Of a DNA stretch of 59,343 bases, positions 7,752 to 57,724 are shown piece by piece. The position numbers were made by a program, and so were the translations under genes. How positions within the stretch are numbered: the stretch's first letter is position 1; each line of letters opens with the position of its first letter. The stretch is from a virus, in UHGV virus genome UHGV-1362914; one strand, 5' to 3'. Below the pieces are notes generated by a model, which saw only the letters and a program-made list of their open reading frames with translations, was not told the origin of the DNA and made no database searches.

Positions 7752-10187
7752 TTATTCCTTACAAATACGCTCGAGCTGGTCCATATCAAGCACGCGCCAA
7801 GCATGAGTATTTTTACTGATATTAATAGGCGTAATGTCGGCATTTGCAGGAGTGGCCAGGGCGGACTTTTCTCCGTCTGTAATTACTTCAATTAAACCTT
7901 CCTGAACAAAATCTACCAGTGTGCGACGAAGTATCTCCGCAGGTCCGGAGTTACGCCTTGTTTGCTCCACACGAGAAAGCTGACCCTGGCAACGTGCAAG
8001 TATGGGTCCGCGTAAGAATATATTTAGCTTCTGGTGCGGTATATAGCGTATTTCGTTCTTAATGTCTGAAAGGTCGCTGGTACAGTAGCGAAGTATAGCA
8101 TTTGCAACAGTACGACGGATTTTAGATTCATTGACTTCACCAATTTCCCCGCTTTTATAACGATCGAGCATCATCTTAACAGAAGACATTATATAAGCAT
8201 AAGACCATTCAACATGATGCTTTTCAACAATAGGCTGATCAGGTCTTTCAAATACTGCGAACGTCCCGGCCATACGCTCAGTCTTTTCCTGAATACGGTT
8301 ATAGATCTGACGCAAAGTTTCATCATTCATTTTGGCTTCATTTCCCAGCTTGCCTTCCAAGAACATCTGGATTTCATAAAGCCTGTCGCGGGCTTCTTGA
8401 GTCTCTTGAACTTCAACAGAATGCCCGTTAGTTTGATAATCAGCTTGCTGCGCAAAGATATAATGAATCAAGCTAATCAATGATTCGGGTAAATCTAAAC
8501 GTGTATTCAGATTTCGACTGGTTGTATAGCCCTCATAAACACCATAGTTAAAACGAGACATAAAACCATCAGCGGCCAGCTTACCTGTAAGGTTCTTAAA
8601 CAGAGAATCTAAGGTTGTTTCACCAATGACTGTTAATGTAACTTCAGTCGAATTAGATTCAATATTGTTTTCCTTATTGGAATACTCAGCACCGCCGCTT
8701 AACATCCCTTCGTGCGATGCTGAGTAGGCGTTAAGGAGAAAGTTTTTCTTCTCCATTGCAGCAGGGTTAGCGGTGTTATTAAGATCTTCCAGTAGACCGC
8801 CGATCTCTGGCATTATCGTACATAAATTGATCTGCTCTAACAGCTTTTTGCGCCAAGCAATAGTAGAACGCATATCAGCGGATGAGAATAAAGAGTTCAT
8901 CTCCACCCCACGCTCGACCATTTTCTTAACAATTCGCCCAATACCCAAGTGCATGGCGTTCTTACCCGTTCCTGAACGAGCCGCAATAATATAGTAAGCG
9001 TTCAGGTGCTTATCGCGATATCGCCATCCTTTAGCTGTAAGAGCAGAGGCAAATGCGAGTGCTGTGGTTATAGAAATAACCGGAACAGGTAGCGTTGAAG
9101 TGTTGTAAATCCATTTAGCAATTTCACCAATAGGCCCTGGCGGGAAACCATATTCGACCTTCTCTACTTCAAACTCTGCATCTTTAGCCGCTAACGATTG
9201 CTTAATTTCAGCTTTCTGAGCATTGGCTTTTTCAGTGTTCGCCAACCATGCCTGTACGTTATTACGGGACATAGCTATGAGCGCTTCTGTTTCTGCTTGC
9301 TTGCGCTGAATTTCTACTTGCAGGTAAGAACGCATATTGTTGATCGTACGGCTAAGATATTTATCATCAGCCATGATCTTATCTTTCTGCCCGGGCTTAG
9401 GTCCACGGTTAGCCAGCGGAGTTTTCCGGAAGATGCGCATAACCTGAGCATTGTTTGGAGATGCTTTCACCAGGAAGTTAATAAGCGCCGCATCTGCTTC
9501 TGACCCTGACGGATATTGTGTAGGGATAAGTCGGGCAATTGGTGAGTAATAAAGCACCTCAAACAGATCAGAGTTTTCCCAGCTGAGAATATCGTTAATG
9601 ACATCTTCATCTGAGCGAACTTGTGGCTGGTCTTCAACCTTGACGATGATCTTAGCTTTTTCATCAAGAAACTGAGCAAGGTATTCGCAGACCCCGTTTC
9701 CGTTAGAAATCGGCGTGTTTATAACCACATTACCCGTACAGATAATGAATCGCTCCTGGCTATAGCGTTCAATACCATAGTCAGAGGAGCGACGACCTTC
9801 ACCGTGGTTACCGTAAACCCATACATGCAATCCCTTCCCGGAAGCGGAAGATTCAACATAGGAAAACGCACCCTGGGCAATCTGCCAGAACCATTGAGAG
9901 TGTTCAGGTGGTGTGTCTTCCTTAACATCCATATCAATTACAGTGAAAGGGTCGTCAGGGGTTAGAACGAAACCAGGTAACAGACCTTCATTCATTTCGC
10001 AGAGGTGCTCTGCTGTGGCATATGACATCCAAGTTTTCGGGTCTGTGGGGGAAGCTTTTTCAAGTGGCTGCTGATAGCCAGGTGAGTACATGGGTATCTT
10101 ATCCGCATAACAAACTACCCACTGAGGGATAGCTTTTATCTCTTGCGGGAAAAGATAACCGTCGAACTCTGTTTGGAATTGTTTCAT
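7752..10187 (-). CDS. bifunctional primase-polymerase (AEP prim-pol) fused to C-terminal P-loop NTPase/helicase-like domain
   Basis: N-terminal VIDMDVK (DxD) and SGKGLHVWVY (SGxGxHxY AEP motif). Downstream P-loop ARSGTGKNA. 811 aa from MKQFQTEF. Confidence 0.55.
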   Translation of the reverse strand: MKQFQTEFDGYLFPQEIKAIPQWVVCYADKIPMYSPGYQQPLEKASPTDPKTWMSYATAEHLCEMNEGLLPGFVLTPDDPFTVIDMDVKEDTPPEHSQWFWQIAQGAFSYVESSASGKGLHVWVYGNHGEGRRSSDYGIERYSQERFIICTGNVVINTPISNGNGVCEYLAQFLDEKAKIIVKVEDQPQVRSDEDVINDILSWENSDLFEVLYYSPIARLIPTQYPSGSEADAALINFLVKASPNNAQVMRIFRKTPLANRGPKPGQKDKIMADDKYLSRTINNMRSYLQVEIQRKQAETEALIAMSRNNVQAWLANTEKANAQKAEIKQSLAAKDAEFEVEKVEYGFPPGPIGEIAKWIYNTSTLPVPVISITTALAFASALTAKGWRYRDKHLNAYYIIAARSGTGKNAMHLGIGRIVKKMVERGVEMNSLFSSADMRSTIAWRKKLLEQINLCTIMPEIGGLLEDLNNTANPAAMEKKNFLLNAYSASHEGMLSGGAEYSNKENNIESNSTEVTLTVIGETTLDSLFKNLTGKLAADGFMSRFNYGVYEGYTTSRNLNTRLDLPESLISLIHYIFAQQADYQTNGHSVEVQETQEARDRLYEIQMFLEGKLGNEAKMNDETLRQIYNRIQEKTERMAGTFAVFERPDQPIVEKHHVEWSYAYIMSSVKMMLDRYKSGEIGEVNESKIRRTVANAILRYCTSDLSDIKNEIRYIPHQKLNIFLRGPILARCQGQLSRVEQTRRNSGPAEILRRTLVDFVQEGLIEVITDGEKSALATPANADITPINISKNTHAWRVLDMDQLERICKE

Positions 10188-13620: not shown

Positions 13621-14156
13621 TTGGCACGCTCTGCTATGATTTTGCGGAACACATGATCAATCTCCTTTAATGCGTTCTTGAGTTCTGGAGGTTGGTCCTT
13701 AATCAATTCGCCGATCACTTTCTTAAAATCCCCGCCCTCGTAGAATTGCGGGTACTGAGCCGCAACGTATCCTTTCCAGTTTAGCATCTCGGCACGCGGT
13801 TCGTTAGTGGTCTTATAGACAGTACCCCACAGCGTATATTCGTACTCACCTTTGACCTTTTTAGGGCGACCAGGTTTTTTATCGGCTTTCTTAGCTTCTC
13901 GTGTGGAAGCTTTCGCGGTCTGCTGATCTGTATACGCTCCGAACCACCATTCTGCATAAGAACGGCGGTAATACACGCGCTGGCTATCTTTAACCACAAT
14001 TACACGCCGAGCTTTAATAAGCTGCGTTTGGCGTGACATAGAGATTTTATACTTTTCTTCTACTTCTTTGGCAGTCATATATCGTTGTCTGAATTCTTCG
14101 TTTTCAACTTCAGTCCAATGATCTATATCAGCTTGCGTCATTTCTAAAGGGTTCAT
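13617..14156 (-). CDS. putative DNA-binding early protein (AT-hook-like KKPGRPKK)
   Basis: First gene of the leftward operon. Basic region KKADKKPGRPKKVK. GAGGAG RBS. Confidence 0.4.
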   Translation of the reverse strand: MNPLEMTQADIDHWTEVENEEFRQRYMTAKEVEEKYKISMSRQTQLIKARRVIVVKDSQRVYYRRSYAEWWFGAYTDQQTAKASTREAKKADKKPGRPKKVKGEYEYTLWGTVYKTTNEPRAEMLNWKGYVAAQYPQFYEGGDFKKVIGELIKDQPPELKNALKEIDHVFRKIIAERAK

Positions 14157-14946
14157 ATTAGCTCCTCAGTCTACTACGCACATTATATAGGCAAAGTAAA
14201 TGATCATCTAGTCTTATTTAGTTACTTTATAAATGCATAGTCTTATGCAGGAGATTGCTATAGTTACTTTAGTGAAAATAGCGAAAGTAAAGTAATTATC
14301 GGAGGTGGATAGCTATAGTTACTTTAGGATGGATTATGCGAGTAGCTTTAATTACTTTTCCTATAGTTACTTTACTAACTTTGCTAAGCCTTGCTATAGC
14401 TGGAAAAGCTTTACTTAGGTGAGTTACTTTAGCAACAACATGCTTTCGTACTTTCCGCTTTCACTATAAGTACCCTGGAAAACTACCTATAGAAACTCGT
14501 AACTATAGTCCAATTATTTTTCATGAATTCAGTAAAAAAGTAGTAAAGTAGTAAGTAATATATAGATGAATATACGTATTTACTGGGTTTTCTCTGCTTT
14601 CTGGGCTATAAAGTTCATTAAAGTACAAATCTAGTAGAATTTTCTTCTTTCTAGAGACGAATAATGCGGTAAGAAAGTGGTCACTCAACTACCTGACTAG
14701 CATATACCTGACCAGCAATATTTCAATTTGACAAATTTGGATTTTAGATTTTCAGATTTTGATTTTTCGTTTCTTATTTATGACTTGTTTTGAGCTCGTT
14801 TCTGCGCTAGAATACTTATATTACCAATGCCGCTGAAGATTCGAAGTCCTAAGGACGATAGATAAGCGCGTTGGCACAATGTGGTTACAGAAATCGACTT
14901 CACATAACAGCAGAAAGCTGAAAAATCAGAATAGGAGTGCTATAGA
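14157..14946. promoter_or_regulatory. divergent control region between the leftward early operon and the rightward block. Contains candidate sigma70-like elements (TATAAT on minus at about 14183..14188; TTGTTT-17-TAGAAT on plus at 14785..14813) and phased A/T tracts
   Basis: 790 bp without ORFs, AT-rich. Hexamers were read directly from the sequence; the -35 matches are weak. Confidence 0.35.
14221..14431 (+). repeat. iteron-like array of five direct copies of GTTACTTTA plus one inverted copy (three in the extended form CTATAGTTACTTTAG)
   Basis: Direct copies start at 14221, 14263, 14318, 14366 and 14423, spaced 42-57 bp apart. Inverted copy TAAAGTAA near 14288. Palindrome CTATAG x4. Confidence 0.6.
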
Positions 14947-15255
14947 ATGAAAATTGAAGGTATGAGCGAACAATATCTGTCGGCTGGTGGCAAATTTTTC
15001 GTGCAATACGACTTCGACGAGAATGGTAAACCTTTGTATCGTCAGATCGAGCTCTACTTACCGTCGGCCGAAGGCACTTACGGCGAGCCGATTGAAGTAA
15101 CCATGAAGAAATGGCTCGATCAGCTCGAAGACGGTAGTCGCGACTGGAAGTGGGCTATCGGTTCTACGGGCGGACAGCTCACCGCTCGCTACCAGGTGCG
15201 CGAGAGCGACGGCGAACTGGTGTCTTTGCTGGCGCTGAAAGGCGGGATGGCGTAG
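14947..15255 (+). CDS. hypothetical protein (GC-rich, acidic)
   Basis: GGAG RBS. First gene of the plus block. Confidence 0.45.
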   Translation: MKIEGMSEQYLSAGGKFFVQYDFDENGKPLYRQIELYLPSAEGTYGEPIEVTMKKWLDQLEDGSRDWKWAIGSTGGQLTARYQVRESDGELVSLLALKGGMA

Positions 15256-15312
15256 CAAATACTGGCCCAGGACGGGCCTGGAAATGTTCCTGTCAATTTC
15301 AAATTTTGTAGA

Positions 15313-15347
15313 AGCCTCGCGTATAGTAAGAATCGCGGGGCTTTTTG
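15313..15347 (+). terminator. putative rho-independent terminator
   Basis: AGCCTCGCG...CGCGGGGCT stem (one mismatch) with a 12-nt loop, followed by TTTTT. Confidence 0.4.
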
Positions 15348-15375
15348 TTGGCAGAAACAGATCTATCCGCTTCAA

Positions 15376-16159
15376 TAGATGAGTTGGCTAACGATAGGAG
15401 GCTCATCATGAGGAGGCTCAGGATATTATGAGTCAGCTACTGGTATATTAGTCGTCGGATAACAATAAGTCGTCTCAGTGTCTGCTAGTCGGCAGGTAGA
15501 TAGCTAGTAATTCAAAAGTTAACAATGAGTCAGCTACTGACCTACTAGGTGTTTAGTTACAACATTCTTCGGTGGTAGCTTGGTCGCAGATAGTTCGAGA
15601 GCGAAGTATGAGCAAATTATTAAAGAGCCTGCGAGCAGTAGCCAGTCTGTCGGCGCTGTTTGCCCGGAGTGCTTATTATACTATGATCGGCTAATAGTTC
15701 ACAATGGCAAGCAATTTGGTCTAGCAAGAAGTAGGCCCAAGGTCGTGGCCAAAAGTGGCAAATCGAGATCTATTTCTTTTCATACTAGGGTACAGGGTAC
15801 CGGCTAGAAACGCTTAAAATCGCCTACAGCGCGTTTTAGCGCGATGTCGATATATACAGTAGATTTAGAATGGGCCTAGTTCTTGCTACGCGCAGGCGTT
15901 ACTAATAAATGTGCAGATACGACATGGGCCTATTTATTGCATACCGCATTTCGTGATATTATCACAATCTTAGCCTGCGATGAGAGTGCTCAGTATGTAG
16001 AACTCTGAAAATTTACACTTCTAACTGATTGATAGATAACAAGTTTATCAGGATAGCATTTTTGGCCACTCCAAAGTCTACGCATTAACATGATATTAGA
16101 AGCGTAGGTTGTAGTTAAGAAGTCCGGCAGCAATAAAGCAGAAATGAAAGGGAATACGT
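15376..16159. other. ~0.8-kb ORF-poor region with internal repeats (candidate ncRNA / regulatory / origin region)
   Basis: No ORF of 60 aa or more with ATG and RBS in any frame. Contains duplicated ATGAGTCAGCTACTG (15428, 15525), duplicated AGGAGGCTCA, palindrome GTGATATTATCAC (15953..15965) and GATAA-N5-TTATC (16035..16049). Confidence 0.4.
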
Positions 16160-16405
16160 ATGTTAACTCAAAAACAAATTACTAAACGCATCATCGGTCG
16201 CTGGTTGCATAAGCGCGGCGTGCCAGTAGTAGGTAACCGCTTCGGCCGCTACGTAATCGATAACGGTGCTGTAGAGCTGAAGTTCCAGGTCTACGAAGAC
16301 GGCACGATTAATACTTTTCGCTTCTATACGGGTTTGGCTGGTATCGAAAGCTTTAACGGTTTATCGGCGCTCTTAACAGCAGTTAAAGAAATGGATAAGG
16401 AGTAA
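16160..16405 (+). CDS. hypothetical protein
   Basis: AAGGGA RBS. GC-rich codon usage. Confidence 0.45.
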   Translation: MLTQKQITKRIIGRWLHKRGVPVVGNRFGRYVIDNGAVELKFQVYEDGTINTFRFYTGLAGIESFNGLSALLTAVKEMDKE

Positions 16406-16408
16406 ATC

Positions 16409-16714
16409 ATGGCCCGGAAAACTGTTAATATCAGCTCCAACGAGATCTATGAGCAGTTGAATCTTCAGCTGACTAATGGTTGGGAAGCAAACTCTGATTC
16501 CGAAATCGATACCTTGTGCATTAACGGTCGCGATTTTAACCTTGGTTACATCGTCCAGTTAGTTATGGACAGTTACAAAGGTTATAGTTTCATCGTTTAC
16601 GAGTTCGTGGAGCGTAAAGAAGACGGTGAGACTAATGAGTCGGATAACGATTTCCTGACTTACGATGAGGCTCTTAACTTCATTCGCACGAAAGTAGAAG
16701 CATACTCAGCATAA
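16409..16714 (+). CDS. hypothetical acidic protein
   Basis: ORF tightly linked to the upstream gene. Confidence 0.45.
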   Translation: MARKTVNISSNEIYEQLNLQLTNGWEANSDSEIDTLCINGRDFNLGYIVQLVMDSYKGYSFIVYEFVERKEDGETNESDNDFLTYDEALNFIRTKVEAYSA

Positions 16715-16764
16715 TCCGGCGAATAATCGCCACTCGATAACAAAATTAAGAAAAGGTGAATACT

Positions 16765-17394
16765 ATGTACGAACTGACTAAGATCTACAAAACCAAAGCT
16801 ATGGCCGTTAACGCGATCCGCATGACTGCGACCAACAAGGGCTGGAAAGTGCTGTCCACCGACGACGCCGCGCAGCACGTATGGCCGCAGGCGGAAGGTT
16901 TCACTGTAAACAATACCTCCTTAAACCTCGCCCTGGGCTTCATTAGCGAAGCGGATGCGGATGCACTATCCCAGCGGGTTCCGGGGGGTAGCGTAACAAA
17001 CGGCGAGGCGCTGGAAGCGGTAAACGCTGCCCTGGCCGAGAAAGCTAATGTGGATAAAAAGGCTCCGAAGCTGCAAGCGCCGTCCAAGCTGGAGCAGGAC
17101 AAAAAGGCTGCCAAAGCTGCCAAAAAGGCGGACAAGGCACCAAAAGGCACCGGTGAGGGCGATAAGTCCGCCACACGCTGCGAAGTTAAGAACGGCGCAC
17201 GCCGCCCGCTCCGCGGCAAGACTTTGCTGGTATGGGAGACTACCGAGATGCTCGCAGCAGGTCCTAACGGTATTCCGACTCTGAAGGAAGTATATGAAGA
17301 GCTTTGCCGCCTGGAACCAGGTTTTAACAAAACCACCGCAGGAATCCAGTATTACGCTTGCCGTGCTTACAACGGCTGGGAGTCTAAAAAATGA
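16765..17394 (+). CDS. Lys/Ala-rich protein with conserved C-terminal domain (paralog of 56966..57724)
   Basis: AAGGTG RBS before MYELTK. KAAKAAKKADKAPK low-complexity region. C-terminal ~65 aa align with the 56966 gene product. Confidence 0.5.
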   Translation: MYELTKIYKTKAMAVNAIRMTATNKGWKVLSTDDAAQHVWPQAEGFTVNNTSLNLALGFISEADADALSQRVPGGSVTNGEALEAVNAALAEKANVDKKAPKLQAPSKLEQDKKAAKAAKKADKAPKGTGEGDKSATRCEVKNGARRPLRGKTLLVWETTEMLAAGPNGIPTLKEVYEELCRLEPGFNKTTAGIQYYACRAYNGWESKK

Positions 17395-56731: not shown

Positions 56732-56820
56732 TGGCGGATAGTATCCGATTCGAACGGATGGAGCCTTGCGACTCGTCTGGTTAGCAACCAGGTGCCTTAG
56801 ACCAACTCAGCCAACTATCC
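56732..56820 (-). tRNA. tRNA-Ser (anticodon GCU), type II with long variable arm, CCA encoded
   Basis: Hand-folded. Acceptor GGATAGT/ACTATCC; T-arm ATCCG-TTCGAAT-CGGAT; variable-arm hairpin GAGTC-GCAA-GGCTC; anticodon loop TTGCTAA. There is one A-C mismatch in the anticodon stem. Confidence 0.55.
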
Positions 56821-56965: not shown

Positions 56966-57724
56966 TTAGTCAAGCAGACCCTGCGGCAGAGGGATAGCGA
57001 CGCGACCTTCGATGCCGTTGAACTTCTTCCAGCGTGCATACTGAGTCTTAACGGTGTCGTAGTTCAGACCACGTTGCTCAGCGCCCTGGAGGACGATACT
57101 GATCGGTGCCGGTTGGCTCAGCTTGGCGGACAGTTCGTCCATCAGTGCCCAGGCATTACCGCACGCGGTATCCGGACGCGGACGGGTGATACCGTTCTGG
57201 TTCGGCATTGCATTGGCAGCTTTCGCTTCGTCTTTCAGGCGCTTCGCTTCAGCTTTTTCAGCTTCTTTCGCTGCTTTTTTGGCAGCGGCCACTTTACCTT
57301 TGACGCCTTTCAGCGCTTCGTCCAGAGCGGAGACCAGGCCTTCGGCTGAAGTTACAGCAGCGGCCAGTTCGCCCGGCTCTTTCAGTTTTTTAACAGTCGC
57401 TTTGATCAGCTTCAGCGATTCGCGAGCAGCTTTCAGAGAAGCGCCGGCGTTTTCGCCCGCAGTGTTAACCTGATCAACGGTGCTTTCTTCAGTCAGCGAT
57501 GCCAGAGAAGCGGTACCGTTATCGGTGTGACCTTTCAGGGTGGTGAATTCGGCGGTCACTTTTTCGTTGGCTTCGGCCAGCTTGTTCGCTTCGGCTTGAG
57601 CTTTTTCATCAGCTTTCTGCTGATCTTTCTGCTCTTTAGCCAGTTTCGCTTTTTCAGCGGCTTCTTTTTTCGCCTGAGCGGCTTTTTCTTTTTTCTGTTC
57701 AGGGGTCAGTTCTACGTTTTCCAT
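56966..57724 (-). CDS. Lys/Ala/Glu-rich protein with conserved C-terminal domain (paralog of 16765..17394)
   Basis: GGAG RBS before MENVELT. Low-complexity KAAKEAEKAEAK. C-terminal domain aligns with the other paralog. Confidence 0.5.
   Translation of the reverse strand: MENVELTPEQKKEKAAQAKKEAAEKAKLAKEQKDQQKADEKAQAEANKLAEANEKVTAEFTTLKGHTDNGTASLASLTEESTVDQVNTAGENAGASLKAARESLKLIKATVKKLKEPGELAAAVTSAEGLVSALDEALKGVKGKVAAAKKAAKEAEKAEAKRLKDEAKAANAMPNQNGITRPRPDTACGNAWALMDELSAKLSQPAPISIVLQGAEQRGLNYDTVKTQYARWKKFNGIEGRVAIPLPQGLLD

Follow-up and report, generated by a model that had tools for sequence, protein, structure and literature searches.

Repeats in the first-step-transfer DNA of bacteriophage T5 have been known since the 1980s and, to our knowledge, their function has never been shown. 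As far as we know, they have been treated only as an oddity of T5-like phages and of two-step injection. The literature that we searched describes the iss and IRD′ repeats for T5-like phages only, and a literature search with sequence strings returned nothing relevant. Functional analogies of another kind are offered by the 11-bp parC iterons bound by ParR and by the sites of Lrp and IHF/Fis. Here we analyzed a gene-free stretch of a Queuovirinae phage genome, UHGV-1362914, whose 59,343 nucleotides (nt) are referred to below as the window. The stretch (15256-16159, 904 nt) lies between the first rightward gene, which encodes 102 amino acids (aa), and an 81-aa gene at 16160. Its main feature, overlooked in the original prediction for this region, is a conserved 130-bp module at 15745-15873 that is related to T5 iss and is found in unrelated phage groups.

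We found that the stretch consists of three layers, namely a leader conserved within the phage lineage, the 130-bp module, and window-specific promoter-like sequence that continues up to the 81-aa gene. The explanation that we favor, and to which we give about an even chance, is that it constitutes a non-coding control region of mosaic make-up that acts in cis, chiefly as double-stranded DNA, and in which a protein-docking regulatory cassette sits beside the lineage leader.

Results

A conserved non-coding module in unrelated phages

A sensitive BLAST search with the stretch matched the module to non-coding DNA of T5-like phages at 74-80% identity and E values down to 2e-10 (Pectobacterium phages My1 and DU_PP_V; Serratia phages Slocum and Kamaji; Vibrio phages pVp-1, VPT02, Pylo, Thalassa and Ceto) and, more weakly, to another Queuovirinae phage, K9PH25C2 (E 5e-4), while nhmmer matches reached 9e-12. 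With the Kamaji module as query we retrieved 103 phage records, which include Proteus, Yersinia and Klebsiella T5-like phages, the Vequintavirinae SSBI34, PBES 02 and POP17, the Stephanstirmvirinae phage FKP3, Vibrio phage 1.262.O and the unclassified Klebsiella phage KP2025, the last with a local gene order as in FKP3. Hosts of the module belong to the Demerecviridae, Vequintavirinae, Stephanstirmvirinae and Queuovirinae, and no match was present in 5,426 Escherichia coli genomes or 72,556 plasmids. The module always lay within a gene-free gap of 0.45-1.2 kb; tiny open reading frames (ORFs) are annotated over it in a few records, and homologues differ by indels of 1 nt and 10 nt. It is co-oriented with the flanking genes in FKP3, KP2025 and My1, opposed to them in SSBI34 and PBES 02, and placed between divergent operons in K9PH25C2 and in most T5-like loci examined (e.g. 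Kamaji, Slocum, Pylo, pVp-1 and phi3).

Conservation within the module follows the turn of the helix. An A is invariant at 15808, 15818, 15828, 15838 and 15858, within TACAG/TTTAG units, and the array ends in an invariant TGT...TACAG; at 15848, where the consensus has A, the window has C. Over 15800-15862 the information content is strongly periodic, with a peak at 10 nt whose height was not attained in any of 5,000 permutations of the alignment. From this 10-bp recurrence, a single face of the helix is probably read over six turns, which would correspond to a protein array or wrap.

The module lacks RNA structure. RNAalifold on 17 diverse homologues returned −2.46 kcal/mol for the plus and −1.35 kcal/mol for the minus strand, with essentially no covariation, and predicted only a 5-bp palindrome stem and a weak 7-bp pairing. 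Six homologous module loci had no Rfam match at E ≤ 0.1, and positions 14000-17000 of the window had none in Rfam 15 at E ≤ 1. The structured noncoding RNA (ncRNA) of the original prediction is thereby discounted for the most conserved part of the stretch. ARAGORN placed the sole tRNA of the window, a tRNA-Ser (GCT), at 56732-56820 on the minus strand and found none in the gene-free stretch. Three further readings of the module were rejected. An RNA closing stem (GTCAA...TTGAC in T5-like phages) is missing from FKP3 and poorly defined in Queuovirinae homologues of the K9 type; TTGAC after the palindrome, taken as a −35 element, has no −10 element 16-18 nt downstream in any homologue, as judged by eye; and a sigma-54 site at TGGCA-N5-TGCT has, by our own count, a GG-to-GC spacing two bases short of the consensus.

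In a small search, a profile built from nine module homologues matched T5 at 9345-9430 with E = 3.3e-5, the aligned part being the 3′ half of the module. These T5 positions belong to the annotated iss (9140-10149) and fall within the IRD′-spacer-IRC′ interval given by Davison (bioRxiv 10.1101/866236).

The stretch that carries the module is non-coding throughout. Genes left of ~14.16 kb run leftward and those from 14947 on run rightward, starting with the 102-aa gene (14947-15255), which shares 99% identity with the corresponding gene of Klebsiella phage vB_Ko_K4PH164 (K4PH164) and 66% with that of Enterobacter phage EC151. It had been suggested that ~0.8 kb here has no credible ORF, and that a conventional gene in related genomes would count against this. 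Our comparison upheld the suggestion, as K4PH164 and EC151 carry no such gene and have gene-free gaps of 488-489 nt at the same place. The longest ORF is a 75-aa frame whose TTG start lies within a window-specific insertion. Neither Pfam nor PHROG gave a match to it, and with relatives gene-free here a missed protein gene was rejected; because the relatives also have no gene at this place, there is no local frame error either. The 0.9-kb annotation gap is thus neither a missed gene nor an RNA gene of known family, and since parts of it are conserved, a function is indicated. The closest relatives of the window phage, K4PH164, EC151 and the metagenomic sequence L074, have no module; of it, K4PH164 and EC151 retain the 5′ motif alone, as an inverse copy (ATAGCACnTTTGGCCACaCC) on either side of their 105-aa gene.

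Other sequences accompany the module in related loci. A GC-rich conserved element of ~80-100 nt (GCGATGGCACCTGATGCAGGGGGAGACAAACACCG..CCTGCC..) adjoins it in Stephanstirmvirinae and Vequintavirinae (loci L018 and L021, both 850-960 on the plus strand; L019, ~1180-1260, and L020, ~1190-1270, on the minus strand). The orientation of this element follows the flanking genes, not the module, it has no Rfam match at E ≤ 0.1, and it may be a small RNA. Direct repeats TTAAATGAGAATCATTATC in T5 iss (L128 430-640, T5 ~9530-9740) match what we take to be the Fur-box consensus, GATAATGATAATCATTATC, at 15 of 19 positions, and related AAATGAGAAT words lie beside the module in My1, FKP3 and SSBI34. TTTAC-N5-TTTAC, presumably the reverse of the CpxR-box pattern GTAAA-N5-GTAAA, stands just upstream of a strong promoter-like TTGCAT-N16-TATTAT or TTGTGG-N17-TAATAT in T5-like phages and FKP3 (L018 1150-1215, L004 1700-1770, and downstream of the module in L007 and L008), and its only counterpart in the window is TTTACACTTCT at 16014-16024. 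K9PH25C2-type phages have a homologue of the gene for the 209-aa protein of the window beside the module. The C-terminal 70 aa of that protein (17167-17376) form a domain restricted to Queuovirinae (Seuratvirus, Nonagvirus) and have a distant paralogue at 57011-57199 on the minus strand, with 26-27% identity to the same K9-type proteins.

Table 1 Features in and around the gene-free stretch (coordinates of the window)
Feature	Position	Strand	Description
Intrinsic terminator of the 102-aa gene	15310..15352	+	12-bp stem (15310-15345), 12-nt loop, U-run
Proximal conserved block B1	15348..15477		AGGAGGCTCA twice, first ATGAGTCAGCTACTG, hairpin AGYYRGC-U-ACUG-GUAUAU-CAGU; kept in five relatives
Insertion	15478..15618		~140 nt, window lineage only; carries second ATGAGTCAGCTACTG (local duplication)
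Proximal conserved block B2	15619..15712		Hairpin 15628-15667 around TAGCCAGTCTGTCGGCGCTGT; promoter-like sites on both strands
Inverted 18-nt motif	15722..15739	−	Left arm of inverted repeat I1
Exchanged cassette	15736..16443	+	Module, spacer, 81-aa gene (16160-16405), start of 101-aa gene
Cross-family conserved module	15745..15873	+	5′ motif, phased array, half-palindrome
Module 5′ motif GTGGCCAAAAGTGGCAAATCGAGATCT	15745-15771	+	Bipartite GTGGC-N5-GTGC/GATC
Module phased array	15806-15859	+	A every 10 nt; CTACAG/TTTTAG repeats
Module half-palindrome ATGTCGATATATACAG	15844-15859	+	TGT-N8-ACAG
Second 18-nt motif	15871..15908	+	Overlaps TTGCTA (15883-15888); GC-rich box ACGCGCAGGCG; TAATAA (15903-15908)
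Third 18-nt motif	15925..15965	+	Overlaps TTGCAT (15937-15942); TATTAT (15957-15962) inside palindrome GTGATATTATCAC
IHF-consensus match TATCAATCAGTTA	16022-16034	−	~0.05 chance matches per 904 nt (our estimate)
Motif ATAGCATTTTTGGCCACTCC	16053-16072		Inverse of module 5′ motif; recurs around 105-aa gene in K4PH164 and EC151

A lineage-conserved leader next to the module

The terminator that had been called behind the first rightward gene was recovered (Table 1), with a stem of −18.3 kcal/mol (z = −3.2) that is kept in K4PH164, EC151 and the metagenomic sequences L074 and L061; the second hexamer of a promoter-like TTCAAA-N18-TATAGT lies within its loop. We then aligned the leader of the window with those of K4PH164, EC151, L074, L061 and a third metagenomic relative, L031, six sequences in all. 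The metagenomic relatives came from a 15-mer viral scan that otherwise yielded mostly noise, and a metagenome scan with an unspecific 14-base pattern gave chance matches only. Two blocks, B1 and B2, are conserved and are split in the window alone by the ~140-nt insertion, which is absent from the five relatives and variable between the window and a further related sequence, L251.

Two helices of the leader have compensatory pairs among the six sequences, with unremarkable folds in the window. The B1 hairpin, whose loop is GGUAUAUCAG, is weak in the window (−4.1 kcal/mol). At the base of the B2 hairpin there are two adjacent compensatory pairs (GAATA/TATTC versus GAGCA/TGCCC), and inside it TAGCCAGTCTGTCGGCGCTGT is a nearly invariant 21-mer. 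B2 also contains a minus-strand TTGTGA-N18-TATAAT (15704-15675). The conserved ATTATAC(T/A) corresponds to a perfect TATAAT on that strand (15680-15675), invariant in the six sequences, with a −35-like T[TG][GA]TGA 18 nt away in 6/6; this is the only promoter-like site of the region to be conserved in all six, and its −35 element lies ~40 nt from the module. On the plus strand, the −35 element of TTGCCC-N16-TATGAT (15660-15687) is not conserved, and because it changes in step with the hairpin the site is not conserved as a promoter.

These features would suit an ncRNA from the proximal block (15348-15712), either transcribed leftward from the minus-strand TATAAT toward the terminator or forming a structured plus-strand leader, and acting through TAGCCAGTCTGTCGGCGCTGT or the GGUAUAUCAG loop. 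Because two hairpins show compensatory changes, some RNA-level role of the proximal block is possible, and we regard such an ncRNA as doubtful rather than far-fetched. The −10 element is invariant with its −35 element kept at 18 nt, the base of the 15628-15667 hairpin covaries around a nearly invariant apical 21 nt, and the block is conserved although it encodes nothing. Against this, the comparison comprises only six sequences and leaves the strand undecidable (alifold −39.6 versus −32.0 for B1 and −23.7 versus −21.8 for B2), the hairpins of the window have z values of −1.3, −0.6 and +0.5 and the whole blocks of −1.4 and −1.75, Rfam has no match, and the block tolerates a 140-nt insertion in its middle as well as 7% divergence between the window and L251.

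The downstream spacer and an exchanged cassette

Downstream of the leader, an 18-nt motif, TGGGCCTAnTTnTTGCWA, occurs in three copies, one inverted (15722-15739) and two direct (15871-15888 and 15925-15942), and nowhere else in the genome nor in any fetched locus. Both direct copies overlap promoter-like hexamers (Table 1), and the arrangement at 15925-15965 suggests an operator-over-promoter geometry. Next to the second copy, a TTGCTACGCG(T/C)GCG box is common to the window, Vibrio phage Pylo, Kamaji, My1 and others. The T5-like phages allow it to be read as a −35 element with a GC-rich spacer, with a score as TTGCTA-N17-TATATT in Pylo. The promoter at 15871-15908 is doubtful in the window because its spacing there, 14 nt, is non-canonical. 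Fur, CRP, TyrR and DnaA readings of GTGATATTATCAC were tried by comparing spacings with the consensus sites by eye, and none fitted.

The inverted copy forms inverted repeat I1, which gives the RNA of the window a low folding energy (z = −3.4) and flanks the module in the window only. As the homologues do not have it and L251 has three uncompensated changes in its left arm, it is not a conserved RNA stem. A miniature inverted-repeat transposable element was likewise rejected, as the repeat is confined to the window, occurs as a single copy and shows, by eye, no flanking duplication (GGTC versus CGCG).

The window and L251 differ by 23 substitutions in 15423-15735 (313 nt), by 1 in 15736-16443 (708 nt) and by 15 in 16444-16700 (257 nt). 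L251 belongs with L249 and L250 to the contigs that encode the identical 81-aa protein, and the latter two are identical to the window across the 904-nt stretch. Because the 708-nt block has 1 substitution against 23 and 15 in its flanks, it was recently exchanged as one cassette, and its left breakpoint (15736) falls at the edge of the module. The 81-aa gene within it is an orphan, for which tblastn searches of 50,697 phage records and of IMG/VR gave no match; it has a weak match to PHROG 13865 (E 1.7e-4) and is absent from K4PH164, EC151 and L074. In L074, a direct duplication of ~24 nt (CCGCGCCCGCGTCGACATGTTT twice, 2790-2830) was seen inside the homologue of the 105-aa gene; it may be a genuine in-frame repeat or have arisen in assembly.

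The stretch is a patchwork in which a 140-nt insertion is specific to the lineage, a 0.7-kb block has been swapped and 15736 marks a recombination breakpoint, and relatives manage with ~490 nt at this place. Most of it could also be a mosaic of functionally neutral filler that arose by illegitimate recombination and local duplication, in which only the terminator and one promoter matter. We consider this unlikely. Filler would not be expected to keep ~75-80% identity and an invariant pattern phased at 10 bp across phage families that have no other similarity, and B1 and B2 are conserved in the six sequences.

Relation to DNA entry and replication

Since its 3′ half aligns to T5 9345-9430 inside iss, the module could be a DNA-entry or injection-pause signal that acts on incoming DNA here too, a reading that we hold to be very unlikely. 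Groups reported as daunorubicin-sensitive overlap the groups that carry the module, which is a correlation only: Demerecviridae and Vequintavirinae are sensitive, Seuratvirus (Queuovirinae) is intermediate, and Drexlerviridae are also sensitive (PMC13250531). No record from the Drexlerviridae is among the module BLAST matches listed. Paired DnaA boxes, an inverted partner copy and an A2 homologue are all missing from the window. The strict DnaA box TTWTNCACA, the one form scanned, is absent from both strands of 15256-16159 and occurs three times in the whole window. A single module match in the whole window leaves no kb-distant inverted partner of the IRC-IRD or IRD′-IRC′ type, and no ORF from T5-like flanks matched the window, in a set that held the full Pylo and pVp-1 A2 genes and a C-terminal fragment of T5 A2, and no A1. 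In T5-like phages, moreover, the full module occupies the divergent pre-early promoter region, deep within the terminal repeat and not at its end, and the closest relatives of the window phage do without it. We know of no report of two-step injection in Queuovirinae.

A replication origin with iterons and host initiator sites, also among the original proposals, is very improbable in our judgment. The gene-free stretch does hold phased 10-bp direct repeats, several palindromes and one IHF-consensus match, although phased repeats are no hallmark of origins in particular. It has neither a DnaA box, as above, nor an AT-rich unwinding element (GC 0.33-0.49), and the cumulative GC-skew minimum lies near 14 kb, ~1.5 kb upstream, in the AT-rich divergent region (14200-14800, GC 0.25-0.36). 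Furthermore, the phages that carry the module have replication machineries unrelated to one another, and the origins of T5 lie in the middle of its genome (Davison, bioRxiv 10.1101/866236). A second gene-free stretch, 14157-14946 (790 nt, GC 0.25-0.36), separates the leftward and rightward gene blocks, coincides with the skew minimum and, around 14738-14770, contains GATTTT(n)A words in tandem. As the site of the main early promoter hub or of an origin, this second stretch is a stronger candidate than the flagged one.

Repeated words and mini-ORFs

All of the repeated words listed originally are present. ATGAGTCAGCTACTG (15428 and 15525) and AGGAGGCTCA (15396 and 15411) each have two copies in the window, ATGGGCCTAnTT lies at 15870 and 15924, the palindrome GTGATATTATCAC at 15953 (15953-15965) and GATAA-N5-TTATC at 16035 (16035-16049). 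Chance falls far short of explaining the 15-mer and 10-mer duplicates and the ATGGGCCTA words, and the last are two of the three copies of the 18-nt motif, the third being the inverted one at 15722-15739. AGTCG[TG]C at 15450, 15468 and 15487 is unusual only in its local clustering, with 14 occurrences in the window against ~14 expected (a back-of-envelope estimate). Neither a perfect 13-bp palindrome (~0.2 expected per 904 nt) nor an inverted repeat with 5-bp arms such as GATAA-N5-TTATC (~1 expected) is significant alone, both expectations being our own estimates and not tool results.

The mini-ORFs translate as reported (MRRLRIL* at 15408, MSQLLVY* at 15428 and MSQLLTY* at 15525), and they were not supported by the comparison. 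L074 and L061 have ATT and ATC, respectively, in place of the ATG of MSQLLVY, the frame of L031 stops at codon 3, and the remaining sequences have frames of 7, 8, 13 or 23 codons, for an overall range of 2-23. A 36-codon minus-strand frame in the proximal block is broken in 3/6 sequences, as read from the alignment by eye. That the mini-ORFs are translated leader peptides that attenuate downstream expression is hardly credible, since sequence comparison largely refutes it: AGGAGG-type sequences precede the ATGs and the first seven codons are similar in several relatives, but start, stop and length are not conserved and the second copy sits in the window-only insertion.

Discussion

Among the three functions proposed for this region, the regulatory hub fits best, and neither a structured ncRNA in the most conserved part nor an origin was supported. 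In the control region that we favor, the terminator of the first rightward gene would be followed by the lineage-conserved leader, expanded by the 140-nt duplication or insertion, and then by a portable regulatory cassette with the 130-bp module at its upstream end. An oligomerizing or DNA-bending protein would wrap or coat the module array, and the resulting complex would set the activity of adjacent early promoters in either orientation, with the leftward promoter at 15704-15675 and a rightward one toward the 81-aa gene as putative targets. That a protein binds, which protein it is and how transcription is affected are inferred from this architecture. A host protein would be the most economical candidate for the binder, because the module is common to unrelated families that have no shared neighboring gene; no flanking ORF from T5-like, Vequintavirinae or Stephanstirmvirinae loci matched the window. 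For the same reason a co-transferred DNA-binding protein was rejected, the 81-aa gene being an orphan and the C-terminal domain of the 209-aa protein being confined to Queuovirinae.

Several observations weigh against a protein-docking control region. No binding protein emerged from the analysis, no known host-factor consensus fits the array, and the binder may instead be encoded by the phages, elsewhere in their genomes. LexA was rejected as a candidate. The half-palindrome of the window reads ATGT-N8-ACAG (15844-15859) and not CTGT-N8-ACAG, and no CTG[TA]-N8-[AT]CAG occurs in the region. CTGT-N8-ACAG is found in T5 and in the Proteus phages Stubb and PM135, with ATGT or GTGT in most homologues, and because most copies, including that of the window, are non-canonical, LexA is not the common reader of the module. 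Promoter-like matches in the region number 7, compared to 5.7 expected in shuffled sequence, and both rightward candidates have non-canonical 14-nt spacers. Finally, the module is dispensable for this type of phage, because K4PH164, EC151 and L074 lack it.

A wider proposal, which we put forward tentatively and would not call probable, is that a portable array has been exchanged among at least four otherwise unrelated lineages of virulent enterobacterial and vibrio phages (Demerecviridae, Vequintavirinae, Stephanstirmvirinae and Queuovirinae) and docks a single host protein in charge of the first minutes of infection, which would act by controlling early promoters or by handling incoming DNA. 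In the literature searched, the module had been described only within the T5 iss repeats; here it is shared across unrelated virulent groups and moves as a cassette. Its occurrence in a Queuovirinae genome, where neither DnaA boxes nor an A2 gene accompany it, argues for a broader role, for instance host-factor docking or early-promoter control. If the wider proposal holds, the T5 'iss' repeats would not be peculiar to two-step injection, and a small 59-kb phage in which the module is a dispensable cassette would allow their function to be studied. Natural variants, this phage with the module and K4PH164 and EC151 without it, would provide a simpler test system.

Three known systems resemble parts of this locus. 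The 708-nt block is moron-like in that it combines its own upstream regulatory DNA with a small orphan gene, is near-identical between lineages that differ by 5-7% on either side, and is absent from the nearest sequenced relatives. In contrast to a classical moron (promoter, gene and terminator, in a temperate phage), this phage looks virulent, there is no terminator after the gene, and the promoter is not firmly identified.

The module is also comparable to helically phased arrays beside promoters, such as Lrp at pap, IHF/Fis upstream regions and ParR on parC, as an architectural analogy only: no consensus match was found in scanning that was not rigorous, and, unlike in those arrays, no partition or regulator gene lies beside it. 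As in those arrays, the sites are one turn apart over ~60 bp, one helix face is conserved, and the array is orientation-independent and adjoins promoter-like sequences.

The third system comprises the untranslated repeat regions of the T5 first-step-transfer DNA (IRD′/IRD of Repeat Regions 3 and 2). Unlike in T5, the host phage belongs to the Queuovirinae, the module is single-copy and the left half of its palindrome is degenerate (ATGTCG). The whole 130-bp module, including the 5′ motif, is shared with the distant T5-like phages My1, Kamaji, Slocum, Stubb, pVp-1, Pylo and phi3, and in each T5-like case it is non-coding, without known function, and located in the earliest-expressed part of the genome. 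As in T5 iss, where phased AAACGC-TTAGAAT, GCGnTCTAG and CGTTTTAG repeats are followed by a TGTAT-N4-ATACAGTAG palindrome, in a segment homologous to window positions 15806-15862, three phased repeats and the palindrome TACTGTATAAATATACAGTA are common to T5 and the window.

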